Part shown: in pieces, positions 14,033 to 59,193 of the stretch
How positions within the stretch are numbered: the first letter of the stretch is position 1
Layout: every line of letters starts with the position of its first letter
Assembly (NCBI GenBank): GCA_016292255.1
Contig: JAEEZZ010000139.1
Coordinates: forward strand, 171-64,170
Direction: 5' to 3'
Source of the DNA: Oscillospiraceae bacterium
GTDB taxonomy: Bacteria > Bacillota > Clostridia > Oscillospirales > Oscillospiraceae
Length of the DNA stretch: 64,000 nt
The notes under the pieces: model-generated
The model's database searches: none
What the model saw: only the letters and a program-made list of their open reading frames with translations
Told to the model about the DNA's origin: nothing
Translations under genes and position numbers: made by a program

Positions 14033-14058
14033 TTCAACTGCGGAACAATAAATAATAT

Positions 14059-14152: not shown

Positions 14153-14452
14153 TTACGCGTTTACGAAATCACTCAAAACAAATTCTTCGACGCGGTTGCG
14201 GATAGAATTCATGCGGCGCGTCCATTCGAGGTTATCTGCTGCTTTGAGCGCTTCTGTGACGCCCTCGATCTCTGCGTACTGACGGACAAGCATCTCATAG
14301 CTTTCCTGCGCGTCGCGGTCAAGATCAGTCAGATACTGTTCCAGCGTTCCCTTTATTCGCATGACGTTGATAACAGCGGGGCTGTGCTTCTTCAGATAAT
14401 TGTAATGGCGCTGTCCCCAAACGCCGATCTTGCTGATGAATTCGTCTTTCAT
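14153..14452 (-). CDS. TnpV-family transposon-associated protein
   Basis: 99-aa ORF. IGVWGQRHYNYLKKHSP...GTLEQYLTDLDRDAQ...AEIEGVTEALKAADNLEWTRRMNSIRNRVEEFVL matches the TnpV pattern I recall (...GVTEALKAADQMxWVxxMNNIRxRAEE...). Confidence 0.8.
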   Translation of the reverse strand: MKDEFISKIGVWGQRHYNYLKKHSPAVINVMRIKGTLEQYLTDLDRDAQESYEMLVRQYAEIEGVTEALKAADNLEWTRRMNSIRNRVEEFVLSDFVNA

Positions 14453-14643
14453 TTTGAACCCTCCATAACCTTGATTTTCTTGGTCGGCGCTTCAATGAGC
14501 TTGAGCAGGATCTCATTGATGAAATCCACATATCCGCCCTCGTCGATGACCAACTTGCGGTATTCGTTGATCACGTTGACCAACTCTTTCCATTCGTAGT
14601 AGTCCAGAGCAAGGTACCGTTTTTCTTGCTTCTTGTATCTCAT
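14449..14643 (-). CDS. Small hypothetical protein upstream of TnpV
   Basis: 64 aa from the internal ATG at 14643, preceded by GGGAGG. It overlaps the tnpV start by 4 nt. The longer 120-aa version in the track has a Cys/His-rich, non-protein-like N-terminus. Confidence 0.5.
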   Translation of the reverse strand: MRYKKQEKRYLALDYYEWKELVNVINEYRKLVIDEGGYVDFINEILLKLIEAPTKKIKVMEGSK

Positions 14644-14876
14644 AGCGTCTCCGCCTCCCTTCGCCGTTACTGTATAACAGAACGGCGGAAAACAAAAATG
14701 TGCGTTTTGGCAGCAATGGTGCGATGAATATGTACATTCAGCTCCGTTAAAACAACGATTTATCAAGTCCGTTATCAATATTCGCACCACGTCGGAAGAA
14801 TGCTGCTCCATTCCGTTTCCGCAGATTCCTTACAGAACTGCGAAAACTCCATATCCGCAGCATCCCTCCTCCTTCT

Positions 14877-14922
14877 CCCCACGCGACCCGCTCCGCTGGG
14901 CTCGCGTGGGGTCCCCTTTTTC
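14877..14922 (+). terminator. Orphan terminator-like hairpin (plus orientation)
   Basis: CCCCACGCGA (14877-14886) / TCGCGTGGGG (14902-14911), followed by TCCCCTTTTTCC. No plus-strand gene ends just upstream. Confidence 0.4.
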
Positions 14923-15073
14923 CTGCGCTGACAGTTGGCAGCTTTTTCCACAACCTGTGCATATCGGGTATCCATGCTCAATGATATTTTTCCCGAAGAA
15001 ATAGCCTGCATTTTCCGGAAGATTTTGTAAAATAGAAAACGTCGCGCATTGAAGCTTACACTTTTTTCGGTGA

Positions 15074-38881: not shown

Positions 38882-38907
38882 ACGGAAAAATGATTGGAGG
38901 GACTTTT

Positions 38908-40116
38908 ATGCGCTACTCCTGGGAGGACGTTCAGACCTTTGTGCAGGAAGAAGACGTCCGATTCATCCATCTTGTGTTCTGCGACGTGTTCGGGCGGCAA
39001 AAGAATATCGCCATTCTGCCCGCCGAGCTCTCCCGGGCCGTCTCCTGCGGGATCGCCATCGACGCGTCCGCGATCTCCGGCTTCGGCGGCGCGGTGCATT
39101 CCGATCTGTTTCTGCATCCGATCCCGGACAGCCTCACCCTGCTGCCCTGGAGACCGGAGCAGGGCAAGCTGGTGGAGCTGCGCTGCTTTGTGACCTACCC
39201 GGACGGACGGCTGTTTGAAAATGACACCCGCTCCCTGCTGCGCGAGGCCGTTGCCAGAGCGGAGCAGGCCGGTCTGTCCTTCTCCTTCGGGCCGGAGCTG
39301 GAATTCTATCTCTTCCGGCTGGACGACGAGGGCGAGCCCACCCGGCGGCCCTATGACAACGCGTCCTATATGGACGCCGCCCCGGAGGACAAGGGGGAGG
39401 GGATCCGGCGGGAGATCTGCATGATGCTCCAGGCGCTGAACATCCAGCCCGAGGGGGCCCACCACGAGGAGGGCCCCGGCCAGAACGAGATCGACTTCCG
39501 CTACTCCGACGCCCTGACGGCTGCGGACAACGCGATGACCTTCCGCTCCGTGGTAAAGACCGTTGCCGCCCGGAACGGCCTGTACGCGGATTTCTCCCCC
39601 CGGCCCCTGAAGCACAGCCCTGGCAGCGGCCTGCATATCAACATTTCCGTCAAGGCGGAAAGCGGCGCGGATCTGCTGCCCCATGTGATCGCCGGCATCC
39701 TGGAGCACGTCCCCGAGATCACCGTGTTTCTCAACCCCACGGAGGGATCCTATGACCGTCTGGGCCGGGACAAGGCGCCCAGCTATGTCTCCTGGTCCAG
39801 CGAGAACCGCTCGCAGCTGGTGCGCGTGCCCGCTGCGGAGGGGGAGTTCCGCCGGGCGGAGCTGCGCTCTCCCGATCCCGGCGCGAATCCCTACCTGGCC
39901 TTCGCCCTGCTGATCCATGCCGCCCTGGACGGGATCGAGGCCGGGCTCTCTCTGCCCGAGCCTGCCGATCTGAACCTCTTCACCGCGGACGAGCAGACCC
40001 TGGCCCGGTTCAGACGGCTGCCCGCCAGCAGATCGGAGGCCGCGCGTCTGGCGCGGGACAGCGATTTTGTGCAAAAGCATCTGCCGCAAATGCTGATCGC
40101 CGCCTATTGCGGCTGA
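38908..40116 (+). CDS. glnA: Glutamine synthetase (short GlnA-family enzyme)
   Basis: I used the start MRYSWEDVQ (ATG at 38908). VRFIHLVFCDVFGRQK..., GPELEFYLF, HHEEGPGQNEIDF and NPYLAFA are GS catalytic motifs. Confidence 0.85.
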   Translation: MRYSWEDVQTFVQEEDVRFIHLVFCDVFGRQKNIAILPAELSRAVSCGIAIDASAISGFGGAVHSDLFLHPIPDSLTLLPWRPEQGKLVELRCFVTYPDGRLFENDTRSLLREAVARAEQAGLSFSFGPELEFYLFRLDDEGEPTRRPYDNASYMDAAPEDKGEGIRREICMMLQALNIQPEGAHHEEGPGQNEIDFRYSDALTAADNAMTFRSVVKTVAARNGLYADFSPRPLKHSPGSGLHINISVKAESGADLLPHVIAGILEHVPEITVFLNPTEGSYDRLGRDKAPSYVSWSSENRSQLVRVPAAEGEFRRAELRSPDPGANPYLAFALLIHAALDGIEAGLSLPEPADLNLFTADEQTLARFRRLPASRSEAARLARDSDFVQKHLPQMLIAAYCG

Positions 40117-40172
40117 GCAAGGCCACAGACAGCGGAAAACTGCTGCCGTAACGCGGAAAGGAGGGATGGCGC

Positions 40173-40778
40173 ATGGTCTTTTCCCAGCAATGCTTCAGCG
40201 TGCTGATCGTGTCGGACTCGGCCCGCTTCAACCAGGCGATCACCGAGCTGATGCCGGCCTCGGGCTATGCGCCCATCCGGATCGTTCCGTCCGTCAGCGC
40301 GGCCAAACGGGCCGCCCTGGAGCGGGTCTATGATTTCGTGGTGCTCAACACGCCCCTGCCCGACGACTTCGGCACGGCCTTCGCCGCGGCCCAGAGCGGC
40401 AATCGGCAGACCGTGGTGCTGATGCTTGTGCGGGCATCCCTGCAGGAGCAGATCCAGAGCCAGGTGACAGACCGGGGCGTCTTCACCCTGCCCAAGCCTA
40501 CCACCCGGCAGGCGCTGCAAACGGCCCTGCAATGGATGGGCGCGGCCCGGGAGCGGCTCCGCAGAATGGAGGAGGCCGACCGGAGCGTGGAGGACAGGAT
40601 GCGGGAGATCCATCGGATGAACCGGGCCAAATGGCTGCTGATCGAGCGTCGCGGCATGAGCGAGTCCGAGGCGCATCATTACCTGGAGCAGCAGGCCATG
40701 GCGCAGTGCGTCAGTAAGCGCGCCATCGTCGATGAGATCCTCTCCGGGCTGGAAGCCCTGCCGCCCACGGAGGGGTAA
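40173..40778 (+). CDS. ANTAR-domain RNA-binding antiterminator with a pseudo-receiver domain
   Basis: 201-aa ORF. The C-terminal ANTAR has REIHRMNRAKWLLIERRGMSESEAHHYLEQQAMAQCVSKRAIVDEIL. The N-terminal receiver-like fold lacks the acidic pocket (VLIVSDS) and has Asn where the phospho-Asp is expected (FVVLNTPLP). Confidence 0.85.
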   Translation: MVFSQQCFSVLIVSDSARFNQAITELMPASGYAPIRIVPSVSAAKRAALERVYDFVVLNTPLPDDFGTAFAAAQSGNRQTVVLMLVRASLQEQIQSQVTDRGVFTLPKPTTRQALQTALQWMGAARERLRRMEEADRSVEDRMREIHRMNRAKWLLIERRGMSESEAHHYLEQQAMAQCVSKRAIVDEILSGLEALPPTEG

Positions 40779-40852
40779 GCCCACCAAAGCCCCCGGAGCC
40801 CCCCAAAGCCCCCGGCGTTTGCCCGCCGTACAAGTGAAAAGGAACAGAAAAA

Positions 40853-40886
40853 CTCCCGGCATCGCAAGGATGCCGGGAGCTTTTTT
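40853..40886. terminator. Bidirectional rho-independent terminator
   Basis: AAAAACTCCCGGCATC-GCAAG-GATGCCGGGAGCTTTTTT, an 11-bp perfect stem between convergent genes. Confidence 0.8.
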
Positions 40887-40894
40887 GCATAAGA

Positions 40895-42217
40895 TCAGTC
40901 GATCACAGTGGTGTAGTAGGTGGTGGTCGTGCCGCCGGTGGTGGTCTGCTTCCAGAAGTACAGGCCGGTGGGAGCGGAGGAGTTCACCATGAAGTACTTG
41001 TTGGAGGAGAAGGCCAGGTAGGGATAGCGGCTGCTGGCGCTGTTGGCAGCGGTCACGTTGCTGCCGCTGATGGACAGGCTCCACTGGCAGTAGCTGGAGG
41101 AGTAGCTGGAGCGGCTGTAGAGGTAGCTGCTGTAGCTGCCCAGGTAGGTGTTGGTGGAGGCGTTCCGGATGCTGTACTTGGAGCCGGTGGAGGCCACGTT
41201 GAACACGTAGGCGTCGGTGGCGCCGGTCAGCACGTCGCCGGAGCAGGTCATGCCGGTGTTGGCAATGGCCACAGCGCCGCCCGCGGAAGCGGATTCATAC
41301 TTGGTGTTGCCGGACAGGCCCTTCAGCACGTACATACTGCCGGTGTTGGTGCCGTAGGTGATGACGTAGCTGCCGGTCCAGTCGGAGGGAGCGGAGCTCA
41401 GCTTCTGGTAGCCTGTGCCGCTGCTGCCGGAGGTGGAGGTGTAGGAGTACAGAGCCCGCAGCGTCACGTTGCCGGTGACCCGGTAGGAGCCGGTGAGGAT
41501 GTTGCCGGGCTGGGTGGTGGAGTTGTTCACCGCAGCGGTGACCCAACCCAGGAAGGTGTAGCCGGCGGGAGCCGCAGCGGTGGGCAGGGTGACGGTGCTG
41601 CCCGCAGTCACGGTCTGGCTGGCGGGAGCGGTGACGCCGTTGGGCACGGAGTAGCTCACCGTGTAGGTGGTCTCAGGCTCGGGGGTGGAGGCGCTGGGGC
41701 TGGTGGTGTAGTAGGTGGTGCCGGTGGCAGTCGCCTTCCACAGCCGGAGCACGTTGGCGTTGTTGGTGCTGGCGGACCAGAAGTACTTGTTGCTGGTGGA
41801 GAAGCCGAAGTAGGGGTAGCTGCCGTTGGCGTAGTTCTTCAGCTGAGCAGCGCCGCTGGAGTTGACCGCAGGCGTCCATCTGCAGTAGGAGGAGTTGTAG
41901 CTGGTGTAGCCGGCCAGGTAGGAGCTGGAGTTCATGCCCATGTAGACGCCGGTAGAAGCGCTCTGCAGGGTGTAGTAGCTGCCGGTGGCGGCCAGGGTGA
42001 AGACGTAAGCGTCGGAGACGTTGGACAGGGTGTTGTTGGACAGGCTCATGCCGGTGGAGGCGTAGGTGGAGGCATTGTTGCTGTTTTCAATCTGGCTGCC
42101 GTTGGAGCTGGGGGTGACGCCCTTCAGCACGTACATATTGGTGGAGTTGCCGTTGGTGATGACGTAGTTGCCGGCCCAGGTGGAGGGCGTGGAGCTCACC
42201 AGCTGGTAGACGTTCTC
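40895..42217 (-). repeat. Copy 1 of a direct repeat of about 1.3 kb shared by the two protease genes (3-prime stalk region)
   Basis: Long runs are identical by eye to 44352-45653, e.g. CAGGTAGGGATAGCGGCTGCTGGCGCTGTTGGC and GATGGACAGGCTCCACTGGCAGTAGCTGGAGGAGTAGCTGGAGCGGCTGTA. The encoded modules look roughly 85-90 percent identical by eye, which I have not computed. Confidence 0.8.
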
Positions 42218-44224
42218 GCCGCCGTTGCCCTCGGTGCGGGCGTAAACGGCGTACAGCGTGACGTTGCCGCTGGGGGTGTAGGAGCCGCTCAGAACAGCGG
42301 GACGGGTGGTGGTCTCGGCGACGGTGTTGGCAGCCCAGCCCACGAAGCTGTAGCCGCTCACAGCGGTGGCCGTGGTGGGCAGCGTCACAGATTCGCCCTG
42401 GTAGCAGCTCAGGGTGTTGTAGGTGGCGCCGTTGGCCTTCAGGGTCACGGTGTACTGGGTCTTGGCGGCGAAGTTGATGCGAACCGTGCAGTCAGAGGAG
42501 GGGTTCACCGTGAAGGTGTTGCCGTTCTGGGTGACGGTGGCGGTGCCGCTGGTGACGGTGTAGCCCGCCGCGTAGTAGCCGGTCTTCGGGCTGGCGGTGA
42601 TCACGTTGCCGCTGATGGAAACGGTGCCGTAGCCGGTGTTGTTGGAGACGGCGGTCACCGTGTAGGTGGGCGCGGGCGTGGAGTTGACCTTGATGCCGAA
42701 GTATCTGAGGCTGGAGCTGGCGCCGGAGGGAGGATTGTAGACGCCGTTCACGGGCTTGACGGTGATGGAGCCGCCGCCCTTGATGGAGCAGCTGGAGCCG
42801 GTGAAGACCACGGGAGCCAGCAGGTCGTAGGGGCTCTGAACGTCATGATACTTGCTGGGATCGTAGCCGTTCTGCACCTTGAAGCCGTAGATGCCGTTGT
42901 AGTCGCTCTGGGCCGCGTTGGCGGTGACAGCGATGCGGAAATCCCGAACCAGATCGGCGCAGCTCACGCCGGTGGCGTTGGTGATGGCGGAGACGTCGCT
43001 GGAGGAGAACTTGTTGGAGATCTGTCTGTAGATGGTGTTGCCGAATCTGGAGTACAGATACTGGGCGAAGAAGGAGACCTGGGAGTAGAGCGCCAGGATA
43101 TCGCTCAGGTTGTTGTTCCAGGCGTACATGGAGTAGCCGTTGTGCAGGTTGTAGCTGGACTGATACTTGAACTCGGAGGGAGGATTCAGCCAGTCGTTGT
43201 TGTCGGCGTAGTAGTAGTTTTCCCAGGACTGGATGCGGCTGACAAGGGAGCTGCCGGGATAGCAGATCTCCTCGGCCGCGGCGGAGAAGCACTCGTTGAG
43301 CCAGGTGCTCATGCCGCTGGTGTTGGAGTAGTTGATCAGGTGCTGATACTCATGGACCATGGTGTTGTAGGTGGTGTCCATGCTCTTGTATTCAGTGCCG
43401 CTGGAATTCTTGTAGTAGACGCCGGGGTAGGTGTCGATGTTCAGGATGGGCAGGCCGTTGTTGGAGATGTCCACCTGGTAGAAGAAGCCGGCGATGTAAC
43501 CCTGGCCGGGCTGCCAGCCGTCGTTGATGTTGTAGTACAGCATATGCAGCTTGCCGTCGCCGGAGGAGCCGTTGGTGTGGTTGCCGAAGGAGGACTGCAT
43601 CAGGCTGAACTTGGAGTCGAACTCATCGGCGGCCTTCTTGGCGAAGCTGGAGTCGATGGTATCCAGGGGGTAGGTGTTGTTGGCGGAAGAGCTGGGGGTC
43701 CAGATGTAGCAGTGCTGGCCCACGTACAGGCACTTGAACTGCACGCTGCCGCTGCCGGTGGGGGAGTAGGTGGAGTAGATGTTGAAGGTCTTGGTGGAGC
43801 CAACGTTATAGGAAGCTCTGGTGGGGACGGGCTCCTTGATGACCGCGGTCTTGGCTTCCTCAGCCATCAGCGGATCCACGTCGAGCTTGAAGGGACGGGC
43901 TTCGTCCCGGGCGGCCCGGAGGAGCTCGGCGTTGGCGTTTGCGTTGGTGTTGACGGTGGTCTCAATGAGGCCGGTCATGGTGCCGGTGGAGGCGGAGCTG
44001 CTGGAGCTGGTGGAGGGGTTGTAGATCACAACGTAGTCGCCCTCGTAGCCGCCGGCGGCGTCAGAGTCTACTACGATCCCGGAGTATACGGCGCGTACCT
44101 GGGAGCTGACGGCCTCGGCGCGTTCACCCGTCTGTGCGCCCACAGCGGGAACCATCAGGCTTCCCATCAAAGCGAGGATCAAAAACAGAGAGAGCAGATG
44201 ACGAAATGTATGGTGATGCAGCAT
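40895..44224 (-). CDS. Giant secreted HExxH zinc metalloprotease (possibly M30/hyicolysin-like head) with InlB-B-like and Listeria-Bacteroides repeats and two copies of an unknown module of about 160 aa
   Basis: I used the start MLHHHTFRHLLSLFLILALMGSLMVPAVGA (ATG at 44224, AAAGGAG 7 nt upstream; the track start is a TTG inside the SD). The zinc motif TMVHEYQHLINY is at 43340-43354. The stalk has YTVTAVSNNTGYGTVS..., two Flg_new-type repeats (...GYSFVGWA..., ...GYTFLGWV...) and two W.G.YVIT...LWK modules. There is no LPXTG, SLH or choline-binding tail. Confidence 0.8.
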   Translation of the reverse strand: MLHHHTFRHLLSLFLILALMGSLMVPAVGAQTGERAEAVSSQVRAVYSGIVVDSDAAGGYEGDYVVIYNPSTSSSSSASTGTMTGLIETTVNTNANANAELLRAARDEARPFKLDVDPLMAEEAKTAVIKEPVPTRASYNVGSTKTFNIYSTYSPTGSGSVQFKCLYVGQHCYIWTPSSSANNTYPLDTIDSSFAKKAADEFDSKFSLMQSSFGNHTNGSSGDGKLHMLYYNINDGWQPGQGYIAGFFYQVDISNNGLPILNIDTYPGVYYKNSSGTEYKSMDTTYNTMVHEYQHLINYSNTSGMSTWLNECFSAAAEEICYPGSSLVSRIQSWENYYYADNNDWLNPPSEFKYQSSYNLHNGYSMYAWNNNLSDILALYSQVSFFAQYLYSRFGNTIYRQISNKFSSSDVSAITNATGVSCADLVRDFRIAVTANAAQSDYNGIYGFKVQNGYDPSKYHDVQSPYDLLAPVVFTGSSCSIKGGGSITVKPVNGVYNPPSGASSSLRYFGIKVNSTPAPTYTVTAVSNNTGYGTVSISGNVITASPKTGYYAAGYTVTSGTATVTQNGNTFTVNPSSDCTVRINFAAKTQYTVTLKANGATYNTLSCYQGESVTLPTTATAVSGYSFVGWAANTVAETTTRPAVLSGSYTPSGNVTLYAVYARTEGNGGENVYQLVSSTPSTWAGNYVITNGNSTNMYVLKGVTPSSNGSQIENSNNASTYASTGMSLSNNTLSNVSDAYVFTLAATGSYYTLQSASTGVYMGMNSSSYLAGYTSYNSSYCRWTPAVNSSGAAQLKNYANGSYPYFGFSTSNKYFWSASTNNANVLRLWKATATGTTYYTTSPSASTPEPETTYTVSYSVPNGVTAPASQTVTAGSTVTLPTAAAPAGYTFLGWVTAAVNNSTTQPGNILTGSYRVTGNVTLRALYSYTSTSGSSGTGYQKLSSAPSDWTGSYVITYGTNTGSMYVLKGLSGNTKYESASAGGAVAIANTGMTCSGDVLTGATDAYVFNVASTGSKYSIRNASTNTYLGSYSSYLYSRSSYSSSYCQWSLSISGSNVTAANSASSRYPYLAFSSNKYFMVNSSAPTGLYFWKQTTTGGTTTTYYTTVID

Positions 44225-44303
44225 ATAGATACTCCTTTTCAAATTTCAGATTGGTTTTTCTATTGAATTGCGCTGCGTAGGACGTTTCGTTCGTCTGGGA
44301 AAG

Positions 44304-44335
44304 GGATGCCCACCATCTTGCGGTGGTGGGCATCC
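44304..44335 (-). terminator. Hairpin downstream of the C1 protease gene (weak T-tract)
   Basis: GGATGCCCACCA (44304-44315) / TGGTGGGCATCC (44324-44335), a 12-bp perfect stem. The minus-strand downstream sequence is CTTTCCC, so it may terminate only partially. Confidence 0.45.
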
Positions 44336-44351
44336 TGCGAGTGTCAGGGGA

Positions 44352-45653
44352 TCAGGTGGTGTAGTAGGTGGTGGAGCTGCCGCCGGTGGTCTGCTTCCAG
44401 AAGTACAGGCCGGTGGGCACAGAGGAGCTCACCATGAAGTAGTTGCTGGAGGCGAAGGCCAGGTAGGGATAGCGGCTGCTGGCGCTGTTGGCGGCGGTCA
44501 CGTTGCCGCTGCTGATGGACAGGCTCCACTGGCAGTAGCTGGAGGAGTAGCTGGAGCGGCTGTACAGGTAGGAGTTGTAGCTGCCCAGGTAGGTGCCGGT
44601 GGACTTGTTGCGGATGGTGTACTTGGAGCCGGTGGAGGCGATCTCGAACACGTAGGCGTCGGTGACGTCAGTGAGCTTGCCGTCGGCGTAGGTCATGCCG
44701 GTGTTGCTGTACAGGACAGCGCCGCCCGCGGAGGCGGACTCATACTTGGTGTTGCCGGACAGGCCCTTCAGCATATAGAGGCTGCTGGTGTTGGTGCCGT
44801 AGGTGATGACGTAGTTGCCGGCCCAATCGGTGGGCGCGGAATCCAGAAGCTCATAGGCGGTGCCTTCGCCGGAGGTGGAGGTGTAGGAATACAGAGCCCG
44901 CAGCGTCACGTTGCCGGTGACCTTGTAGGAGCCGGTGAGGATGTTGCCGGGCTGCGTGGTGGAGTTGTTCACCGCGGCGGTGACCCAGCCCAGGAAGGTG
45001 TAGCCGGCGGGAGCGGCGGCAGTGGGCAGGGTGATGTAGCTGTTGGCGGCAGCCGTCTGGCTGGCGGGAGCAGTGATACCGCTGGGAACGGAGAAGCTGA
45101 CGGTGTAGTTGGTTACGGGAGCGGCAGAGCCGATCTCGGTGGTGTAGTAGGTGGTGCCGCCGGCGGTCTGCTTCCACAGACGGAGCACGTTGGCGTTGTT
45201 GGTGCTGGCAGACCAGAAGTACTTGCTGCTGGTGTTGAAGCCGAAGTACGGATAGCTGCCGTTGGCGTAGTTCTTCAGCTGAGCAGCGCCGCTGGAGTTG
45301 ACAGCGGGGGTCCATCTGCAGTAGCTGGAGTTGTAGCTGGTGTAGCCGGCCAGGTAGGAGCTGGAGTTCATGCCCATGTAGGTGCCGGTGGCAGCGCTCT
45401 TCACGGTGTAGTAGCTGCCGGTGGCATCCAGGGTGAAGACGTAGGCGTCCGCCACGTTGGTCAGAGCGTTGTTGGACAGGCTCATGCCGGTGGAGGCGTA
45501 AGCGGTGGCATTGGAGCTGGCCTCGATCTCAGCGCCGTTGGAGCTGGGGGTCACGCCCGTCAGCACGTACATACTGGTGGAGTTGCCGTTGGTGATGACG
45601 TAGTTGCCGGCCCAGGAGGAAGGCGTGGAGCTCACCAGCTGGTAGGCGGAAGC
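44352..45653 (-). repeat. Copy 2 of the direct repeat of about 1.3 kb shared by the two protease genes
   Basis: See copy 1. The off-frame shadow ORFs of the two regions in the track are also near-identical (MEPVHQRQQRDRCQQRQQPLSLPG vs MEPVHQQRQRDRRQQRQQPLSLPG). Confidence 0.8.
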
Positions 45654-48600
45654 GCCGCCCTCGGTGTAGGAGTAGAGCGCCTTGAGGGTGATGTTGGCGG
45701 TGGGCTTGTAGGAGCCGGTCAGAACGGTGGGCAGGGTGGTGGCGTTGTTGACCGTGGTGCTGACCCAGCCCAGGAAGGTGTAACCCGCGGGAGCCGCGGC
45801 GGTGGGCAGGGTGACGGAGTTGCCGGAAGCCACAGTCTGGCTGGCGGGAGCGGTCACGCCCTCGGGCACGGAGAAGCTCACCGTGTAGTAGGTGGTAGCG
45901 CCGGTGGCGGGCAGGGTGGTGTGCTCGCGGCTCAGCTCGGCGTTGCAGCGGGTGCAGTAGACCACGGTGTCGTAGCCGCCGTCGGTGGTGGCAGTGGGAG
46001 CAACGTAGTTCTCCTGGACGGAGGCGCCGGGGTTGTGGCCAAGAGCGGCCACGGTCTTGTGGCTGCGGCTCATTTCCTCACCGCAGGTGGCGCAGTAGAC
46101 GACCTCGTCATAGCTGCCGGCAGCGGTGCAGGTGGGGGCGACCACGTTCTCCTGAACGGCGGCCGCGGCGGTGTGGGTGTGGGTCTGGGCGCTGGGGTTG
46201 GTGTTGTAGTAGACGGTGGAGGCGGTGGTCTGCTTCCACAGCTGGGTCTTGTTGGTGGTGTAGCCGGTGTTGACCACGAAGTACTTGTTGGAGCCGACGA
46301 CCAGGTAGGTGTACTGGGTGCTGCCCACGTTGGAGATCTTCATGCAGATGTTATAGGTATCATACTCGATATTCCAGTCGGAGTAGCTGGACTGATAGCT
46401 CTGCATGTTGTGCAGGTAGGTGCTCTGGGTGCCGATCCAGTAGTTGGTGGGGCTCTTGATGGTGTAGGTGGAGCCGTTCTTCGCGATGGTGAACACGTAG
46501 TTGGCGGGGACGTTCTTCAGAACGGTGCCGTCCAGGGTCATGCCGGTGCTGGCGTAGGCCACGGAGGCGCCGCAGGTCGAATTCTCCAGACGCTGGTCGG
46601 AGCTGACGCCCTTGAAGGCGATCAGGCTCGTGTCCTTGCCGCTGGTGATCACGTACTTGCCGGTCCAATCGGTGATGGGCTCGGCCACGATCTCGTAGAT
46701 GATCTCGCTGCTGCCCTCGGTGCGGGTGTACAGGGCGTAGAGGGTGGCGTTGGCGGTGACGGTGTACTCCGCGCCGGGCGCGTAGTAGCTGGGCTTGGTG
46801 GTGGTCTCAGCGACCTGGGAGGCAGCCCAACCCACGAAGCTGTAGCCGTTGACGGCGGTGGCAGTGGTGGGCAGGGTGATGGTGTCGTTGATATAGGCGG
46901 TCTGGCTGCCGGCGGAAGCGCCGCAGGCCATGAAGTTGACGGTCAGCTGGGGCTTCACCGCAAAGATGACCTTGACGGTGCAGTCGGAGGAAGGATTGAC
47001 CGTGATGATGTTGCCGTTGATGGAAACCGTGGCGGTGCCGGAGGTCACCTGGGCGTCGGAGACATAGTAGCCTGCCTTGGGCGTGGCGGTGATCTTGTTT
47101 CCGTTGACGGAAACCGTACCGTAGGAGGTGTTGTTGGAGACGGCGGTCACAGTGTAGCTGGCGTCGTCGGTGTAAGCCTTGATGCGGAAGTCGCCGTTGT
47201 TGGGCACGTCAGTCCAGGAGCCGTTGGCTTCCTTGTAGAAGGAAGTGTTGCCGCGGTTGGCGTGGGTCCACTTGCACCAGGAGATGCTGGCGGTGGCGTC
47301 GTAGGGGATGTGGACGTACTTGCCGTCGTCGGGATCGGCGGAGGGGGTGCTCAGGGTGAAGACCACGGCAAACTTATCGCCGGCGGAGAGGGCGACGGGG
47401 TTGTTCAGCTCGATGGTGTAGTAGCCGGCGTAGGGCATCGTGCCGGTCTGGCTGGTCATCAGCGTGCCGGAGCTGGGGTTGGTGGCGCTGGTGGGGTTCT
47501 TGTAGATGCTCAGGGTGTAGGAGGTCGCCTCGTCCCAGGGAGAGATGGCGACAGCCTTCAGCGTCTCGGAGCCGTTGGCGGTGAAGATGTTGGCAACCTG
47601 GCAGTTGTTGTTCATGGACTGGTAGCTGGCCAGGTTGGTGGTGCCGTCGTACTGATAGCAGTTGGCGTAGTTGCCAACGTTGCTCATCTTGTAGAAGTAG
47701 ACGGAGTCGTTGAGAGAAGCGGAGTCCTCGTAGGAGAGGTAGAAGTAACCGCTCTTGCCCCAGGAGGTGCCCCAGGAGTTCTTGATGATCCAGGCGCCGT
47801 TGCTGCTGGGTCCGTAGGAGGACTTGAAGTTGGACTTGGAGTAGTTGTCGTCCCAGCCGACGACGGTGACGGCATGGTTGCCGTACTGGTAGTTGTTGGA
47901 GCCGTAGGCAGCGCTCTGCTTGAAGCAGTAGCCGCCGGTGCTGGAATTATAATAGGAGTCGTTGTGGTAGTAGCTGATGGTGCCCGCGCCGTACTCCATG
48001 ATGGCTTCCTTGATCGCCTGCATATTGGAGACGGGGATCCACTCAACGCTTTCTACGTGAGCAACGTCATAGTCGTAAGCATATTGAGAGTTGAGGCCGG
48101 AGGTGGAAACATTGCTGTATTTCAGCGCGGAGGTCTTCTCGGAGGCGGGGCCTTCCCAGCGCATCAGCGTGTAGGTGGCCATGGCGCCGTTGCCGCCCAT
48201 ATCCAGGTAGGAGCTGGCGCCGGAAGCGGAGAGCACAGGGCTGGAGCTGTCGCCGGAGAGCATGCCCAGCTTATCGTAAGCATTGGTGTAGTTGAACCAA
48301 GCAAGATGAGATTCAGAAAGATCCATGCTGGTGGTGGCCGCAGCGCCGGTATCGTTGTTGATGATGCCGTGCTTGATCATGTAGGCCTCGACGGAGGCCA
48401 TGGTGCCGAAGGCCCAGCAGGTGCCGTAGGGGTTCTGGTTTTTGACGGAGGTGATGTAGTTGTAGTTGCGGGAGTCATAGCTGGAAGGGAGGGTCGCACG
48501 GGTGCCGTTGGTTTCGTCCGCACCGCTTAGATAGCGTTCTGTCAGGGCGCGGCTGCCGTGGTAGATCATGGGGATGTAACCGGAAATGATCTCTGCGGGT

Positions 48601-48713
48601 TCGTTTGCTTTGCCCTGACCGATCCCGACTGCGAATGCCGCTGTCGGAAGCAGGCCAATGATCAGGAGTACGGTCAAACAGATTGCGAGTAGCTTTTTGC
48701 CGGTTCGTCTCAT
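44352..48713 (-). CDS. Giant secreted papain-like (C1A) cysteine protease with the same repeat stalk, three copies of the unknown module of about 160 aa, and a duplicated Cys-rich insert
   Basis: I used the start MRRTGKKLLAICLTVLLIIGLLPTAAFA (ATG at 48713, GAGGAG upstream). Catalytic motifs are NQNPYGTCWAFG (Cys codon 48417-48419), NHAVTVVGWDD and NSWGTSWG. The stalk is as in the neighbouring gene, and the protein ends ...YFWKQTTGGSSTTYYTT with no recognisable anchor. Confidence 0.85.
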   Translation of the reverse strand: MRRTGKKLLAICLTVLLIIGLLPTAAFAVGIGQGKANEPAEIISGYIPMIYHGSRALTERYLSGADETNGTRATLPSSYDSRNYNYITSVKNQNPYGTCWAFGTMASVEAYMIKHGIINNDTGAAATTSMDLSESHLAWFNYTNAYDKLGMLSGDSSSPVLSASGASSYLDMGGNGAMATYTLMRWEGPASEKTSALKYSNVSTSGLNSQYAYDYDVAHVESVEWIPVSNMQAIKEAIMEYGAGTISYYHNDSYYNSSTGGYCFKQSAAYGSNNYQYGNHAVTVVGWDDNYSKSNFKSSYGPSSNGAWIIKNSWGTSWGKSGYFYLSYEDSASLNDSVYFYKMSNVGNYANCYQYDGTTNLASYQSMNNNCQVANIFTANGSETLKAVAISPWDEATSYTLSIYKNPTSATNPSSGTLMTSQTGTMPYAGYYTIELNNPVALSAGDKFAVVFTLSTPSADPDDGKYVHIPYDATASISWCKWTHANRGNTSFYKEANGSWTDVPNNGDFRIKAYTDDASYTVTAVSNNTSYGTVSVNGNKITATPKAGYYVSDAQVTSGTATVSINGNIITVNPSSDCTVKVIFAVKPQLTVNFMACGASAGSQTAYINDTITLPTTATAVNGYSFVGWAASQVAETTTKPSYYAPGAEYTVTANATLYALYTRTEGSSEIIYEIVAEPITDWTGKYVITSGKDTSLIAFKGVSSDQRLENSTCGASVAYASTGMTLDGTVLKNVPANYVFTIAKNGSTYTIKSPTNYWIGTQSTYLHNMQSYQSSYSDWNIEYDTYNICMKISNVGSTQYTYLVVGSNKYFVVNTGYTTNKTQLWKQTTASTVYYNTNPSAQTHTHTAAAAVQENVVAPTCTAAGSYDEVVYCATCGEEMSRSHKTVAALGHNPGASVQENYVAPTATTDGGYDTVVYCTRCNAELSREHTTLPATGATTYYTVSFSVPEGVTAPASQTVASGNSVTLPTAAAPAGYTFLGWVSTTVNNATTLPTVLTGSYKPTANITLKALYSYTEGGASAYQLVSSTPSSWAGNYVITNGNSTSMYVLTGVTPSSNGAEIEASSNATAYASTGMSLSNNALTNVADAYVFTLDATGSYYTVKSAATGTYMGMNSSSYLAGYTSYNSSYCRWTPAVNSSGAAQLKNYANGSYPYFGFNTSSKYFWSASTNNANVLRLWKQTAGGTTYYTTEIGSAAPVTNYTVSFSVPSGITAPASQTAAANSYITLPTAAAPAGYTFLGWVTAAVNNSTTQPGNILTGSYKVTGNVTLRALYSYTSTSGEGTAYELLDSAPTDWAGNYVITYGTNTSSLYMLKGLSGNTKYESASAGGAVLYSNTGMTYADGKLTDVTDAYVFEIASTGSKYTIRNKSTGTYLGSYNSYLYSRSSYSSSYCQWSLSISSGNVTAANSASSRYPYLAFASSNYFMVSSSVPTGLYFWKQTTGGSSTTYYTT

Positions 48714-49049
48714 GGGGTAGGTCTCCTCTTTCATAAAAATTTTTGCTGTGCGTCTTCCGGACGCCAGCGTAGCAATCATAGCACTAAGATCGAAAAAAGT
48801 CCACAGATTATACATAAATTTTCGTAAAATATTCAGTATTTTTTTGTTCAATATGCCGAATATTAAAAAACGGAGCAGAGTTTTAAAAATGTTTTAACGC
48901 TATGTGTTTTTGTTGTGGAGACAAGGAAAAAATGTGTTTTTTGTGTGAAGATTTCAGAGCTGCAAAAATGAATAGAAACAGGAAGCCGCAGCTTCCGAGG
49001 ATCCAAAAAATGAATACTGTTTTTTTGCCTGCGGAGCCCCCATGGCCGC

Positions 49050-55389: not shown

Positions 55390-58300
55390 GTGATGAAACG
55401 GAAGCTGATAACATTTCTGGTGATTCTTTGTATGCTGGCCTCACTGGTTCCTGCAATTCCTGCGGCGCAGGCGGCGGGGTCAAATATGATTCGTGTCTGC
55501 TATGACACCGGCTTTGGCTGTGTGTTCTGGTCAAAGGGCAACACGAATCCCACGGACAGCGCAGACGACTTTGCCTGCGACAACGAGCCGTTCTCTGTGA
55601 ACAGCACCACGCAGATCCGCCTGTGGATCGATCCCACCCGGGCAGTAGATCGCTGGCGCTGGGAGGAGGACAACGAGCTGGTGTTCATGGAGCCCATTTA
55701 TGCGGAGGATCGCAACATCTACGTCCGCGTGCGCTATCCCATGAGCAACGGCGACTGGTACGACGAATTGGTCGTGGATAAGGGCGTGGCCGTCAAAACC
55801 GGCTACACCTTCAAAAACAACATTCTGAGCTTCAAGGCGACGGAGGCCGACGGATCGGTGGACGTCGACATCTACTGGACGGATTCCGACTTTGCCTACA
55901 TGAGCTTCTGGCCCGAGGACGGCGAGATCATGGTAGACTACGGCTGGAACGGCGTGGAGCAACCGGTGCTGGCGGAGGAAGCCGCCGTGACCCGGGAGAT
56001 GTCCCAGCCGGATCGCTGCCGGCGTCGGGTGATCGTGCCCGCTTCCACCCAGAGCGTGAGCTTCAGCTGGAACAGCCATCTGCAGCGCATCTGGGGTGAC
56101 AACGTCAACCACGACGATCAGTGGGGCGATCTGACCCATCTTCCCGACAACGAGTTCACCCTCTACCTGGACGGCACCGACGGCGGGGAGCACCCCAGAA
56201 ACTGCTACAACATCGGCTTTGACTTTGCCCAGGACTGGAACTATCTCTTCTCCGTGGACTACGACATGAACGGCGGCCTGGTGTTCCAGACCGTGGGCGG
56301 CGGCACTCCCACTGCCACGGCGGACTGCTTCCTGCCCCGGCGGGGAGACGAGCGGGAGTCCTGGCCCTCTGAGCGCAGCTTTGCCGGCGCCGACGGAGCG
56401 GAGACCATCCGCCTGCTCTTTGACGAAACCAAGGCGATCGATTGGGAGGCCTGGGACAGAGAAGAGCCGGAGCTGCAATTCGTGGAGCCCTGGCACAACG
56501 ACGACCGGGTCATTTCCGTGATCGCCCGCTACAACGACGACGACGGCTGGAAAGAGGAAGCTCTGGTGGAGTATGGCGTGCCGGTGACAGGGGTCAGCTT
56601 TGCGGACAATGTCCTGAGCTATACCCCCGCAAGCGGCTTCGACGTGGAATTTTCCGTCTTCTGGACGCGGGACGACTATGAATTCTACCACTTCGTCGGC
56701 ACCGAGGAAAAGCCGGTGATGGTAGAGGTGAACTGGTGGGGAGACGGAGCCGTCAATCTGACGGACCCCATCGACCCGGCGGATACGATGATCCGCGACG
56801 GCCGTATGCGGATCCGGGTGGCGGAGGACGTGGAAAGCCTCACCTTCACCTGGAACGAGGACGACGAGCTGCGGCAAATCAATGTGGACGGCCTGGGCGA
56901 GGGCGGCCAGTGGCTCAGCATTATGCACCCCGAAGGCAACAGCTATACCCTGCAGCTGGACCAGACCTGGGACGACGGCCAACCGAAGGACTGGTACAAC
57001 ATCCAGTTCGAGTTTGAGGGCGGCGGCGAGTCCATGGCCATGGCCTTCTATGACCAGAACAAGGGCAGCATCTTCTGGGCGCTGGGGGACGATACCCCCG
57101 CGGCTGACGCCGCACACTACCTGAACTTCGGCTTTGACGGCGCGATCTGCTTCAAGCAGGACGGCCAGCTCCTGCCCATCCATCTGCTCTTTGACGGCAG
57201 CAAGGGCCTGGATTTTGACTACTACGATCAGCATAACGGCGCGATTCGCTTTGTGGATTCCACCGTGCCGGAGGAAGACCGGATCGTGGGCGTCTACGCG
57301 GTGAGCAGCTGGTGCGAGGGCCCTGTGTTCTGGGACGGCGAAGTCACCGAAAACGGCGCAGCGCAGGGAGTCAGCTATGAAAACGGCGTCCTGAGCTTCC
57401 AGCCCACAAACAGCAGCGACCTGATGCTCCACGTCTATTGGACCCAGGCGGACGCGGACTACGACGGCTTCCAGGGCACAGAGGAATGCCCGGTGATCGT
57501 GGAGTACCGCTGGTGGAACAACGGGGAGATCCCCATTCCCGAGGGCGTCTCTGAGGAGAATTATACCGCCTATTCGGGCGGCGGCATGGCCCGGGTCCGT
57601 GTGCCCCTGGAGCAGGAAAGCATCACCTTTACCTGGGCGGAGGAGTACGGCGTCCACCGGATCGGCTATTCCGTCCGCAGCGAGGAGGGGGAGGATTGGA
57701 TCGACTTTGAAGTGGATCAGTCCCAGCCCCACAGCTTCACCCTGGAGCTGAACCAGACGGAGATGTTCGACGGCCACGTGGAGCCCTGCACCTGGTACCA
57801 GGTGGAGTTTGAATTCTTTGAAGACAGCAGATACCAGCTCTGGATCAACTGGCGGGAGTCCGAGGGCAACGTCTACTTCGGCCTGAACGAGGCGCCTCCC
57901 CCGGTGGAGGACAGCGCCACCTACGATCTGGAGCGCTACTACGCCCACAGCAACGGCCAAGCCCCGATTTTTGCCACTCTGGATGAGAACGGCGACCCCG
58001 AGATCGGCAAGGTCTACCTGCGGCTGGATCCCACCCACAGCGTCAACTACTTCAACGATGCGCTCACCATGTACGATCTGGGCGCCTGGGAGGGCTACTC
58101 CCCCACGATCTATATGGAATACCCCCTGGAGGGAGCGCTGGGAGAATGGTTCGAGGGCCCCGTGGTGGTGGACGGCCGGGCCGTGTCCGACTTCGTCACC
58201 TTCGAAGACGACGTGCTTTCCTTCACCCCCATCAACGAGCAGCCGGTCATCATCCATATCCTCTGGAGCCATGAGGACGAGGCCTTCTGGGACTTCGATA

Positions 58301-59193
58301 CCACCCCGGAGAAGCCTGTGATGGTGGAGCTGATGCTGGGCGCTCGCGTCCCGGTGCAGCTTCCCGCGGATCTTCCCGCCGAGGACGTCCATATCTGGCA
58401 CGCGGCGGAGCACGACTACGTCCGGATCCGCGTCCCCGCCGACCGGGAGAGCGTGAAGATCACCTGGCCGAGAGTCGGCATCGTGGCCCTGATCGAGGAG
58501 GACGGCGCCGGAGAGAACGGCGAGCCCCTGCGTGTCAACTTCCCCACGGAGCGCGCCTATGAGATCCGCTTGAATCAGCAGAATTGGGACGGCAGCCCCC
58601 GGGAGTTCTACTCCGCCGTGTTCTGGGGCTATGGCTGGCAGGAGAATCCCTTCGAGGACGTAGCGGATAACGCGTGGTATCACGAGGCAGTCTGCTTCGC
58701 GGTGAGCATGGGCATCACCTCCGGCACCTCTCCCACGACCTTCTCGCCGGATAATACCCTGAAGCGCTGCGAGTTTATCACCTTCCTCTGGGCCGCCGCG
58801 GGCCGTCCGGAGCCGACCATTACCGAATGTCCCTTCGAGGACGTAGCGGACAACGCCTGGTATCGGAGGCCTGTCCTCTGGGCGCTGGAGAACCACATTA
58901 CCAGCGGCACCTCGGCCACCACCTTCGGCTCTGACGATCCCTGCACCCGCGCCCAGGTGATGATGCTTCTGTGGCGGGTCGGCGGCTCCCAGGAGCCCGA
59001 AAGCCAGGACTGCCCCTTTGACGACGTTAAGGACGGCATCTGGTACAGGAAGGCAGTCTGCTGGGCAGTGGAGCAGGGGATCACCGCCGGCACCACAGCC
59101 AACACCTTCAGCCCGGACGCCTCCTGCACCCGCGCCATGGCGGTGATGTTCCTCTTCCGTCAGACGCTGAACACCTGGCGCGACGGCGAATAA
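55390..59193 (+). CDS. Large acidic Trp-rich cell-wall protein: signal peptide, four tandem copies of an unknown module of about 265 aa, and three C-terminal SLH domains
   Basis: 1267-aa ORF. The start is GTG at 55390 or ATG at 55393, after AAGGAGG. The signal peptide is KLITFLVILCMLASLVPAIPAAQA. Modules are approximately 55486-56235, 56236-57027, 57028-57825 and 57826-58638. The SLH region (58645-59169) has three repeats of F(E/D)DV.D..WY...V.WA...GIT(S/A)GT....F.P. Confidence 0.85.
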   Translation: MMKRKLITFLVILCMLASLVPAIPAAQAAGSNMIRVCYDTGFGCVFWSKGNTNPTDSADDFACDNEPFSVNSTTQIRLWIDPTRAVDRWRWEEDNELVFMEPIYAEDRNIYVRVRYPMSNGDWYDELVVDKGVAVKTGYTFKNNILSFKATEADGSVDVDIYWTDSDFAYMSFWPEDGEIMVDYGWNGVEQPVLAEEAAVTREMSQPDRCRRRVIVPASTQSVSFSWNSHLQRIWGDNVNHDDQWGDLTHLPDNEFTLYLDGTDGGEHPRNCYNIGFDFAQDWNYLFSVDYDMNGGLVFQTVGGGTPTATADCFLPRRGDERESWPSERSFAGADGAETIRLLFDETKAIDWEAWDREEPELQFVEPWHNDDRVISVIARYNDDDGWKEEALVEYGVPVTGVSFADNVLSYTPASGFDVEFSVFWTRDDYEFYHFVGTEEKPVMVEVNWWGDGAVNLTDPIDPADTMIRDGRMRIRVAEDVESLTFTWNEDDELRQINVDGLGEGGQWLSIMHPEGNSYTLQLDQTWDDGQPKDWYNIQFEFEGGGESMAMAFYDQNKGSIFWALGDDTPAADAAHYLNFGFDGAICFKQDGQLLPIHLLFDGSKGLDFDYYDQHNGAIRFVDSTVPEEDRIVGVYAVSSWCEGPVFWDGEVTENGAAQGVSYENGVLSFQPTNSSDLMLHVYWTQADADYDGFQGTEECPVIVEYRWWNNGEIPIPEGVSEENYTAYSGGGMARVRVPLEQESITFTWAEEYGVHRIGYSVRSEEGEDWIDFEVDQSQPHSFTLELNQTEMFDGHVEPCTWYQVEFEFFEDSRYQLWINWRESEGNVYFGLNEAPPPVEDSATYDLERYYAHSNGQAPIFATLDENGDPEIGKVYLRLDPTHSVNYFNDALTMYDLGAWEGYSPTIYMEYPLEGALGEWFEGPVVVDGRAVSDFVTFEDDVLSFTPINEQPVIIHILWSHEDEAFWDFDTTPEKPVMVELMLGARVPVQLPADLPAEDVHIWHAAEHDYVRIRVPADRESVKITWPRVGIVALIEEDGAGENGEPLRVNFPTERAYEIRLNQQNWDGSPREFYSAVFWGYGWQENPFEDVADNAWYHEAVCFAVSMGITSGTSPTTFSPDNTLKRCEFITFLWAAAGRPEPTITECPFEDVADNAWYRRPVLWALENHITSGTSATTFGSDDPCTRAQVMMLLWRVGGSQEPESQDCPFDDVKDGIWYRKAVCWAVEQGITAGTTANTFSPDASCTRAMAVMFLFRQTLNTWRDGE

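Follow-up and report, generated by a model that had tools for sequence, protein, structure and literature searches.

What might a bacterium gain from two large secreted proteases that differ in catalytic chemistry and share the rest of their length? The question is raised by two adjacent genes, here called A and B, in a 64,000-nt stretch of an Oscillospiraceae bacterium assembly (GenBank GCA_016292255.1, contig JAEEZZ010000139.1, positions 171 to 64,170; this whole stretch is referred to as the window). The predicted product of B has a papain-like head and that of A an HExxH metalloprotease head. Both heads sit on a common stalk in which InlB-type repeats alternate with a module, X, that is modelled as a beta-trefoil, and genes with the same two heads stand next to each other in other genomes. 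On balance, and with modest conviction, we favour a reading in which a rumen Clostridium would secrete A and B as glycan-targeted proteases, and their shared cassette would hold two complementary proteases on a glycan-bearing surface.

In the list of open reading frames (ORFs), gene A (40895-44224) encodes 1109 aa from an ATG start (MLHHH...) and gene B (44352-48713) encodes 1453 aa (MRRTGKK...). Both lie on the minus strand, B before A, with 127 nt between them. A first-pass annotation, made from the letters of the window, had recognised the two adjacent co-directional ORFs and the length of A, and differed only in giving B 1454 aa. The motifs that it quoted are all present, namely TMVHEYQHLINY at A288, GTCWAFG, NHAVTVVGWDD (B279) and NSWG (B312) in B, and the repeat motif GY(S/T)F(V/L)GW, as is the C-terminal ...YFWKQTT..TTYYTT of both proteins. 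Sec-type signal peptides were again judged by eye to be present on both, that of B having n, h and c regions and an AFA cleavage motif. A Pfam scan and a motif check agree that neither protein carries an SLH, CWB or sortase signal, and there is no Pfam match to a dockerin in either. No LPXTG motif is found at the C-terminus of A or B; the LPXTG-like strings are internal, within Flg_new repeats or linkers. B was considered as a sortase substrate and rejected, its sole LPXTG-like string (LPATG at residue 934) being internal.

Downstream of the heads the two proteins are collinear, as had been proposed, from residue ~509 on. A534-1106 and B887-1453 share 70.6% identity over 588 aa (E = 0), which is far beyond chance, and the stalk DNA is 84.5% identical over 1493 nt. 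In a wider alignment (A590-end against B941-end) the identity is a mosaic, ranging from 56% to 97% per 90-nt window. The genes are intact and recurrent. JGI contig Ga0401708_1558887 (L001) is identical to the window, an identical A protein occurs on 7 contigs from several assemblies, and clusters at 90% identity hold 12 members for A and 17 for B, the majority near full length. An assembly artefact or pseudogene was rejected on the strength of this recurrence and of the near-full-length members; the gene disruption that the first-pass annotation had named as a way for its proposal to fail is not seen. Public annotation calls A a 'hypothetical protein' and B a 'C1A family cysteine protease' (JGI).

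The layout of A is signal peptide (1-30), HExxH head (31-515), Flg_new_2 and two [Flg_new-X] units. That of B is signal peptide (1-28), C1 domain (~62-345), Lectin_like (353-515), Flg_new_2, one [Flg_new-X] unit, two Cys-rich repeats and two further [Flg_new-X] units. The features are:

44352..48713, minus strand: gene B, predicted secreted Cwp84-like C1A cysteine protease on a Flg_new/beta-trefoil stalk (ORF, Pfam, PDB 4ci7)
48630..48713, minus strand: B signal peptide, aa 1-28, MRRTGKKLLAICLTVLLIIGLLPTAAFA (by eye)
47679..48530, minus strand: B papain-family catalytic domain, aa ~62-345, with Gln93, Cys99, His280 and Asn305/Asn312 (Pfam, Cwp84 alignment)
47169..47657, minus strand: B lectin-like beta-sandwich, aa 353-515 (PF18560)
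46953..47159, minus strand: B Flg_new_2, a divergent InlB B-repeat (PF18998; tblastn, 71% identity to the A copy)
46719..46949, minus strand: B Flg_new repeat 1 (PF09479)
46200..46712, minus strand: B module X1, predicted beta-trefoil, 'first-position' subtype (alignment, hmmsearch; 91% identity to L015_C1a.X1)
45900..46166, minus strand: B, two Cys-rich Zn-ribbon-like repeats, aa ~850-935 (marginal Pfam)
45660..45887, minus strand: B Flg_new repeat 2 (Pfam, tblastn)
45138..45659, minus strand: B module X2, predicted beta-trefoil, 'penultimate' subtype, 86% identity to A X1 (alignment, hmmsearch)
44877..45107, minus strand: B Flg_new repeat 3 (Pfam, tblastn)
44355..44870, minus strand: B module X3, predicted beta-trefoil, 'terminal' subtype, ending ...YFWKQTTGGSSTTYYTT (alignment, hmmsearch)
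40895..44224, minus strand: gene A, predicted secreted M30-like gluzincin metalloprotease on a Flg_new/beta-trefoil stalk (ORF, PDB 7bb8)
44135..44224, minus strand: A signal peptide, aa 1-30, cut between ...LMVPAVGA and QT (by eye)
42680..44134, minus strand: A metalloprotease head, aa 31-515, with HEYQH 291-295, NECFS (Glu311) and Tyr380 (lugdulysin alignment)
42458..42667, minus strand: A Flg_new_2 (PF18998, 30.6 bits)
42230..42457, minus strand: A Flg_new repeat 1 (Pfam, tblastn)
41702..42223, minus strand: A module X1, beta-trefoil in the model, the copy used for modelling (AlphaFold2, Foldseek)
41435..41668, minus strand: A Flg_new repeat 2 (Pfam, E = 1.2e-16)
40907..41425, minus strand: A module X2, predicted beta-trefoil, terminal subtype, ending ...YFWKQTTTGGTTTTYYTTVID (alignment, hmmsearch)

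The catalytic heads

The head of B had been described as papain-like, and Pfam agrees (Peptidase_C1, 60 bits, cutoff 20.7). The protease domain is followed at once by a Lectin_like match (PF18560; 99 bits, E = 3.8e-28, residues 353-515). The best PDB match of the head is Cwp84 (4ci7, E = 7e-32), and it spans the papain and lectin-like domains together (residues 62-488). The lectin-like domain was first described in Cwp84 of Clostridioides difficile, in which the catalytic residues are Cys116, His262 and Asn287, with Gln110 as the oxyanion residue (PMC4089489). In B, Gln93, Cys99, His280 and Asn305 align with Gln110, Cys116, His262 and Asn287 of Cwp84. On this alignment B is a member of papain family C1A, Cwp84-like subgroup, with its catalytic set intact and its activity predicted.

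What B shares with Cwp84 (PDB 4CI7/4D59) is a signal peptide, a papain domain with Gln, Cys, His and Asn in place, and the PF18560 beta-sandwich that follows. However, the relationship is distant. Cwp84 has three CWB2 repeats, the mark of the C. difficile Cwp family, whereas there is no Pfam match to CW_binding_2 (CWB2) in B, whose C-terminus is instead the Flg_new/X cassette, made up of Flg_new_2, three [Flg_new + beta-trefoil] units and two Zn-ribbon-like repeats. B also comes from a rumen Oscillospiraceae-like metagenome-assembled genome (MAG), and, unlike Cwp84, it is not known to have an SlpA-type substrate. The Zn-ribbon-like repeats are Cys-rich units of ~40 aa (PTCTxxG...YC.xCG...H) with marginal zinc-ribbon Pfam matches (zf-BED, 23.8 bits). 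Two copies are present in B, and up to 14 occur in tandem in a 4479-aa relative (L020:7088-20525).

The head of A has no match in Pfam or NCBIfam, both of which were scanned with full proteins and isolated modules. Peptidase_M30 (PF10460), the family that the first-pass annotation had guessed, does not match it even at E <= 10, and only Peptidase_MA_2 appears, at E = 0.3. The guess was borne out by another route. A lugdulysin structure (PDB 7bb8) matches the HExxH head with E = 1.9e-14 across about 260 residues, a clear homology, in an alignment that pairs HEYQH with HEYQH and WLNE with WLNE, and puts A Tyr380 opposite the Tyr that is mutated in 7bb9 ('E242Q Y315F'). A direct statement of the MEROPS family of lugdulysin was not found in the literature; the assignment was checked through Pfam, where the lugdulysin segment passes Peptidase_M30 (32.9 bits, cutoff 25.8). 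Since lugdulysin scores as Peptidase_M30 and A is homologous to lugdulysin, the M30 assignment is right by transitive homology. Since PF10460 misses the head of A, this protein represents an M30-related clade outside the current model. The motif residues of A are HEYQH (291-295), NECFS with Glu311, and LALYSQ with Tyr380. We take their roles as zinc ligands and active-site residues from the entry name 'E242Q Y315F' and from general knowledge of gluzincins.

Homologs of this head are numerous, with >160 matches in Clostridia MAGs at 50-80% identity, and are named by their appendages only ('InlB B-repeat-containing', 'Ig-like domain-containing', 'dockerin type I repeat-containing'). As judged by homology, the head belongs to a large Clostridia clade related to M30, for which proteolysis is predicted. 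The likeness to lugdulysin and hyicolysin, the staphylococcal neutral metalloproteases of MEROPS M30, lies in the homologous catalytic domain with its aligned HEYQH, WLNE and active-site Tyr. However, the head of A goes undetected by PF10460 and falls in a Clostridia-specific clade, and A carries a ~600-aa stalk that the staphylococcal enzymes lack.

A third kind of head occurs on the same stalk. On a contig from a sister sample (L003), A is preceded not by B but by a 1018-aa protein that bears it:

L003:6817-9873: third-head gene, head at residues ~30-445

The third head is also found in L008, L010, L015, L029, L039, L043-45, L050-54, L058-59 and L061, either on the same stalk or with dockerin or SLH modules, and two of its motifs, ...DSHG... 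and ...C.G..., are invariant in 28 to 42 clusters. It has no Pfam match and no PDB sequence match, whether searched as a single sequence or as a profile. Its AlphaFold2 model (pLDDT 84.9) finds clan CD peptidases as most of its best Foldseek matches (E 4e-4 to 0.1, TM about 0.3), including SAVED-CHAT, separase, Craspase TPR-CHAT, caspases 9, 1, 11 and 7, and gingipain R. These matches and the His-Gly...Cys order together support a new clan-CD-like family. With moderate confidence, then, the modelled third head can be read as a caspase-fold family of this kind, large and unannotated.

Is the third-head gene followed by the M30-like gene in L003 a genuine tandem? This was rejected. The left half of L003 is syntenic with L010, from a related species in which no M30 gene follows the third-head gene, and the point at which L003 passes over into window sequence lies within the repeated terminal X. 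The third-head paralog and the window are identical in the 3' ~470 nt of the gene (B X3 in the window) and in the intergenic region. L003 is probably a chimera or a recombinant. Whichever it is, the same population does contain a third-head paralog whose terminal cassette is nearly identical.

The stalk and its beta-trefoil module

Pfam finds two Flg_new repeats in A and three in B, with one Flg_new_2 in each, all above threshold (Flg_new and Flg_new_2 score 61 and 30.6 bits in A, and 76.3 and 32.2 bits in B). Relatives are accordingly named 'InlB B-repeat-containing protein' by NCBI, and in a profile search the Flg_new region matches InlB B-repeat structures (2y5p). Between these repeats lies module X, ~172 aa long, with five copies in the window, all of them in A and B. 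The ...FWKQT..TTYYTT motif ends every internal X copy too, so it belongs to the module and is no terminal sorting signal.

X had been set down as an unknown module. It proved not to be an unknown fold. An AlphaFold2 model of A X1, built with 30 homologs (pLDDT 89.3, pTM 0.86), has 107 Foldseek matches in the PDB at E <= 1e-3, and the best 50 of the 107 are all beta-trefoils (TMq about 0.6, probability 1.00). The matches include FGF1 and the FGF family, FRG1, the lectin domains of the mosquitocidal toxin (2vse), the CCL2 lectin and botulinum HA33 with Gal, GalNAc or Neu5Ac bound. Sequence gives weak hints in the same direction (RicinB_lectin_2 E = 0.03, FGF 0.12, designed trefoil 0.8), and a PDB sequence search with X alone yields trefoil hints at noise level. 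Among relatives, a fragment that contains X (P0026) carries PF14200 (RicinB_lectin_2), this family is reached in 3/40 X-bearing proteins with a best E of 3e-9, and a profile that includes X has weak matches, on the X region, to HA17 and a ricin-B-like lectin. The model and these hints suggest that X is a divergent ricin-type beta-trefoil, of the ricin-B / HA33 / FGF type, and that it may bind sugar.

How far does the likeness go? X resembles ricin-B lectins and carbohydrate-binding module (CBM) family CBM13 on secreted enzymes and toxins (HA33, MTX) in its fold, in the tandem multivalent layout and in being attached to secreted catalytic domains, and some members of the X family reach RicinB_lectin_2. 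In contrast, the X copies of the window stay below every Pfam trefoil threshold and lack (QxW)3, their sugar binding is a prediction, and they have a signature of their own (W-x-G-x-YVIT ... SSYCxW ... FWKQT..YYTT), with Flg_new always before X. The overall plan also recalls Internalin B of Listeria, in which a head, a B-repeat (Flg_new-type) spacer and C-terminal repeated non-covalent binding modules follow one another. However, the heads of A and B are enzymes and not leucine-rich repeats, their binding modules are trefoils and not SH3-like GW domains, and the B-repeats alternate with the binding modules. The possibility that the stalk is a well-known anchoring or adhesin architecture, which would have told against the original proposal, is half true. 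Flg_new and beta-trefoil lectin folds are known kinds, whereas the combination and the X family are unannotated, and a literature search found no description of a Flg_new/beta-trefoil stalk architecture.

The idea that the stalk is shared while the protease chemistry is exchanged is real, but the stalk is not dedicated to this pair. An exhaustive X profile search of 1.84 billion representative proteins returned 402 X-bearing clusters at E <= 1e-3 (89 at E <= 1e-30). Module mapping of the best 144 of the 402 gave 26 with C1 + Lectin_like, 5 with an M30-like head, 30 with the third head that has no Pfam match, 43 with other N-termini and 40 fragments. Samples of the 'other' class and 40 sequences of the whole set were surveyed with Pfam, and further heads and domains found with X are Endonuclease_1, alpha-amylase (with a ubiquitin-like domain), Peptidase_M6, Peptidase_S8, Cthe_2159 and CBM26. 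The cassette is carried by many heads, then, and endonuclease I, alpha-amylase and Cthe_2159 are not proteases.

Known anchors are also found beside X, SLH in 10/40 proteins and choline-binding repeats and dockerin once each. That X often coexists with bona fide anchors argues that it is a ligand-binding module and not a wall anchor. Elsewhere the M30-like and third heads carry Big_2 + dockerin, or SLH x3, in place of the cassette. As read from these domain combinations, the design is combinatorial, a set of heads multiplied by a set of address modules, and A and B are one case of a mix-and-match extracellular enzyme family, not a unique two-gene system. Dockerin- and SLH-bearing proteases of rumen and gut Clostridia have the same M30-like and caspase-fold heads, interchangeable on localisation modules. 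A and B differ from them in having neither dockerin nor SLH; their Flg_new/beta-trefoil cassette is a third, unannotated address type.

By position, three subtypes of X can be told apart (first, penultimate and terminal). Each keeps 80-97% identity across heads and related genomes, whereas different subtypes are only about 45% identical to one another. A.X1 groups with B.X2, L003.X1 and L010.X1, and A.X2 with B.X3 and L009.X3. This pattern indicates that the whole two-unit cassette has been copied or converted between paralogs, and that the repeats were not amplified independently.

Some unusual relatives were seen on the way through the family. A ~300-aa C-terminal domain ending ...LLNA(M/L)L.Y.DAA.., without a Pfam match, replaces the terminal X in many relatives and could be a further address or anchor module; examples are residues ~1570-1883 of an ORF in L071 and the C-termini of P0180, P0184, P0187 and P0189. 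Eight giants of 3000-3800 aa (P0162, P0169, P0176, P0188, P0195, P0203, P0221 and P0233) have Flg_new-X units near residues 1400-2000 and, by eye, SLH-like N-terminal motifs (...F.DV....AWY..AV.YV...GWM.G). In P0161 (1075 aa), the adenylation and OB N-terminus of an NAD-dependent DNA ligase is joined to a Flg_new-X stalk; an error of gene calling or assembly is the most likely cause of this fusion.

Pairing of the heads and its possible purpose

Do the two heads belong together? GTDB species representatives were scanned with the five X copies of the window as queries, which gave 65 related loci. A C1 gene followed by an M30-like gene, in the same order, is present in three other species-level MAGs: L009, L014 (UBA3851) and L023 (Tb.RUG.186). 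L009 matches the window collinearly from the Na/Pi transporter across B and on into the first part of A. The genes that flank the pair in the window are missing from L014 and L023, so the C1-M30 adjacency persists in different contexts. In addition, a MAG contig holds a single predicted ORF of 1883 aa (L071:6242-11893) that is an in-frame C1/M30 fusion on one stalk, in the order signal peptide, C1, Lectin_like, Flg_new_2, M30 head (its own signal peptide lost), Flg_new_2, Flg_new, X, Zn... As read from this ORF, it appears to be a Rosetta-stone-type fusion. The claim that A and B form a functional unit gains from these tandems and from the fusion. It does not hold throughout, as M30-like genes also stand alone (see below), and other tandems exist as well: third head, C1 and C1 in L015, two third heads in L008 and two C1 genes in L041.

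The favoured reading, glycan-targeted proteolysis, can be put as follows. A and B would be exported by their Sec signal peptides, each with an N-terminal catalytic head and a C-terminal 'address' cassette of Flg_new_2 followed by repeated Flg_new (an InlB-type B-repeat spacer) and X. The multivalent beta-trefoils would bind a glycan-bearing surface, most likely feed or plant particles, or perhaps other microbial cell surfaces in the rumen. This would keep two proteases of complementary chemistry on one substrate, where they might cooperate in degrading protein for nitrogen acquisition. The cassette would then play the role that dockerin or SLH modules play on the same heads in other rumen Clostridia. 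The tandem itself may have arisen by duplication, with recombination of the terminal two-unit cassette between paralogs.

Several observations weigh against this scheme. M30-like genes are found alone in about 8 loci and on the contigs of P0039, a 76%-identical relative, so the pairing with C1 is not obligatory. The neighbours of A and B are housekeeping genes that give no functional clue. The case for carbohydrate binding by X is an indirect one. Against RicinB_lectin_2 two X copies of the window score 15.4 and 14.7 bits (cutoff 25.6) and B X1 has no match, no window copy reaches the threshold of any Pfam trefoil family, and the modelled TM-scores to known trefoils are only about 0.6. The canonical (QxW)3 motif is not present in X, where W16, W116 and W162 do not lie in Q-x-W triplets spaced by one lobe. 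Beta-trefoils also act as cytokines, actin bundlers and protease inhibitors. As A and B end in X and have no recognised anchor, X could itself tether them to the wall of the producer. Finally, the rumen origin of the window is itself inferred, from its relatives and from its own NCBI accessions (JAEEGH/JAEEGI), which share a block with those of the Tb.RUG MAGs.

The tethering idea can be taken further. Perhaps B, like Cwp84, processes surface or S-layer proteins of the cell that makes it, A being an accessory, and the cassette binds that cell's secondary cell-wall polymer in place of CWB2. The closest solved homolog of the head of B does have SlpA as its substrate, the cassette is C-terminal in A and B, where Gram-positive non-covalent anchors usually sit, with no other anchor present, and a large SLH protein is encoded 6.7 kb away. 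We consider such self-surface maturation unlikely. It fits poorly with the SLH, choline-binding and dockerin anchors that often accompany X, and with the presence of the same cassette on heads that have no part in surface maturation (nucleases, amylase and carbohydrate-binding ones). Nor does it sit easily with several paralogs per genome bearing different heads, or with the distance between B and Cwp84. Other cells could be the target instead, the stalk addressing glycans of rumen bacteria, fungi or protozoa so that the proteases strip or lyse competitors or prey. This was one suggestion of the first-pass annotation, it suits the multivalent lectin-like fold of the stalk, and a nuclease and several protease classes on the same cassette could dismantle foreign cells. 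However, there are no toxin, immunity or secretion-system genes nearby, no peptidoglycan hydrolase (lytic) head was seen among those sampled, and relatives of the heads carry dockerins, which point to fibre-associated complexes. Attack on other microbes is therefore rather improbable.

Degradation of host glycoproteins such as mucin or IgA had also been put forward, and secreted proteases with lectin-like modules would suit it, as would HA33-type trefoils, which bind Gal, GalNAc and sialic acid. Where the related loci come from speaks against this. All 65 lie in MAGs, which belong to Oscillospiraceae, other Clostridia, Lachnospiraceae, Erysipelotrichaceae and Christensenellales, and the explicit source labels, which the majority carry, are without exception rumen, omasum or reticulum (of buffalo, sheep, goat, cattle or roe deer) or the RUG, RGIG and Tb.RUG series. 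The forestomach epithelium is non-glandular and does not secrete mucin. Pfam finds no M60, M98, O-glycoprotease or IgA-protease domain in A or B, and the same heads carry dockerins elsewhere. Host targeting is accordingly unsupported and very unlikely. What if X were directed at the heads themselves? Beta-trefoil inhibitors of cysteine and other proteases are known, cocaprins being an example (PMC9104457), and the majority of cassette heads are proteases. On that account X might, as an intramolecular inhibitor or latency domain of the Kunitz-STI or mycocypin kind, block the heads until release. Yet the best structural matches of X are lectins and FGFs, not Kunitz or mycocypin proteins. X is likewise found behind a nuclease, an amylase and a carbohydrate-binding head; its copies, 2 to 4 in number, sit far from the head, and the SLH giants contain it as well. 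A latency role seems scarcely credible.

Glycan-targeted proteolysis is left as the reading that we favour, and a bolder version of it can be entertained. The cassette could be a new glycan-binding address system specific to rumen Clostridia, in effect a new CBM-like family, that organises a multi-enzyme extracellular apparatus for protein degradation in parallel to the cellulosome and without cohesin-dockerin pairs. The Cwp84-like and M30-like enzymes would be an obligate cooperating pair in it, at which their kept adjacency and the in-frame fusion hint, and a caspase-fold clan CD family not recognised before would belong to the toolkit. This is speculative, and the chances are against it in that full form. 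Secreted enzymes built from modules, with shuffled heads and a lectin or CBM tail, are already well known as a kind. New here are a beta-trefoil family that lacks annotation and always goes with Flg_new, two protease head families undetected by Pfam, and a recurrent C1-M30 pair that is once fused.

Why should this matter? Proteolysis in the rumen decides the share of dietary nitrogen that the animal receives and the share that escapes as ammonia, yet almost no annotation exists for the extracellular proteases made by abundant uncultured Clostridia, Oscillospiraceae among them. The locus and its relatives yield three protease head families, two of them invisible to Pfam, an unannotated targeting module and a combinatorial grammar (cassette, dockerin or SLH). 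Should X prove to bind a defined glycan, it would found a new family of carbohydrate-binding modules and account for the way in which rumen bacteria without cellulosomes position their proteases. Cooperative proteolysis could be tested on the C1-M30 pair and its fusion.

Transcription signals and neighbourhood of the locus

Are B and A transcribed together? Three features bear on this:

48775..48803, minus strand: promoter-like site upstream of B (consensus scan, 9/12 matches and a TG extension)
44304..44335, minus strand: GC-rich 12-bp hairpin, 16 nt past the B stop, with a poor U-tract (RNA fold)
40848..40884, minus strand: intrinsic terminator-like hairpin past A, a 16-bp stem then a T-run (strong)

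The site upstream of B is a pattern match only (1 site against 1.7 expected), and the consensus scan finds no promoter-like site between B and A. The 127-nt spacer folds at -35.2 kcal/mol (z = -3.84). Its hairpin was not called by a terminator scan and is possibly an attenuator or an mRNA stabiliser. The intergenic sequence also provides A with its own ribosome-binding site (AAAGGAG). Co-transcription of B and A with attenuation is plausible as a prediction from these signals.

The surrounding genes encode glutamine synthetase (GlnA) and an ANTAR response regulator, an MBL-fold hydrolase, PhoR/PhoP, a Na/Pi-PhoU transporter, DapF and an aminotransferase, and no sortase or dedicated secretion partner is found among them. 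A dedicated operon with partner genes was rejected, the neighbours being GlnA/ANTAR, the MBL hydrolase, PhoPR and the Na/Pi transporter. The glutamine synthetase and the ANTAR-domain response regulator (38890-40778, plus strand) are convergent with A and lie right past its 3' end. A nitrogen-regulation link to A and B is conceivable; this flank is not kept in the L014 and L023 tandems. The SLH protein that had been noted near the pair is encoded at 55390-59193 on the plus strand. It has 1267 aa, with three C-terminal SLH repeats and ~1200 N-terminal residues without a Pfam match, and is possibly an S-layer or surface protein, and so a candidate substrate if B acts as Cwp84 does.

Two features of base composition remain. 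From 40001 to 48000 the plus strand has a strong positive GC skew of 0.16-0.26, against about 0 elsewhere, because of the C-ending Ser, Thr, Ala, Tyr and Asn codons of A and B. This skew gives rise to long spurious antisense ORFs, for example one of 1420 aa at 44268-48530 on the plus strand. From 1 to 15000 the GC content is 0.44-0.55, against ~0.62, and two ORFs there resemble, by eye, a large serine recombinase (10-1725, minus strand) and a MobA/relaxase-like protein (3084-4748, minus strand). This part of the window may be an integrated mobile element.

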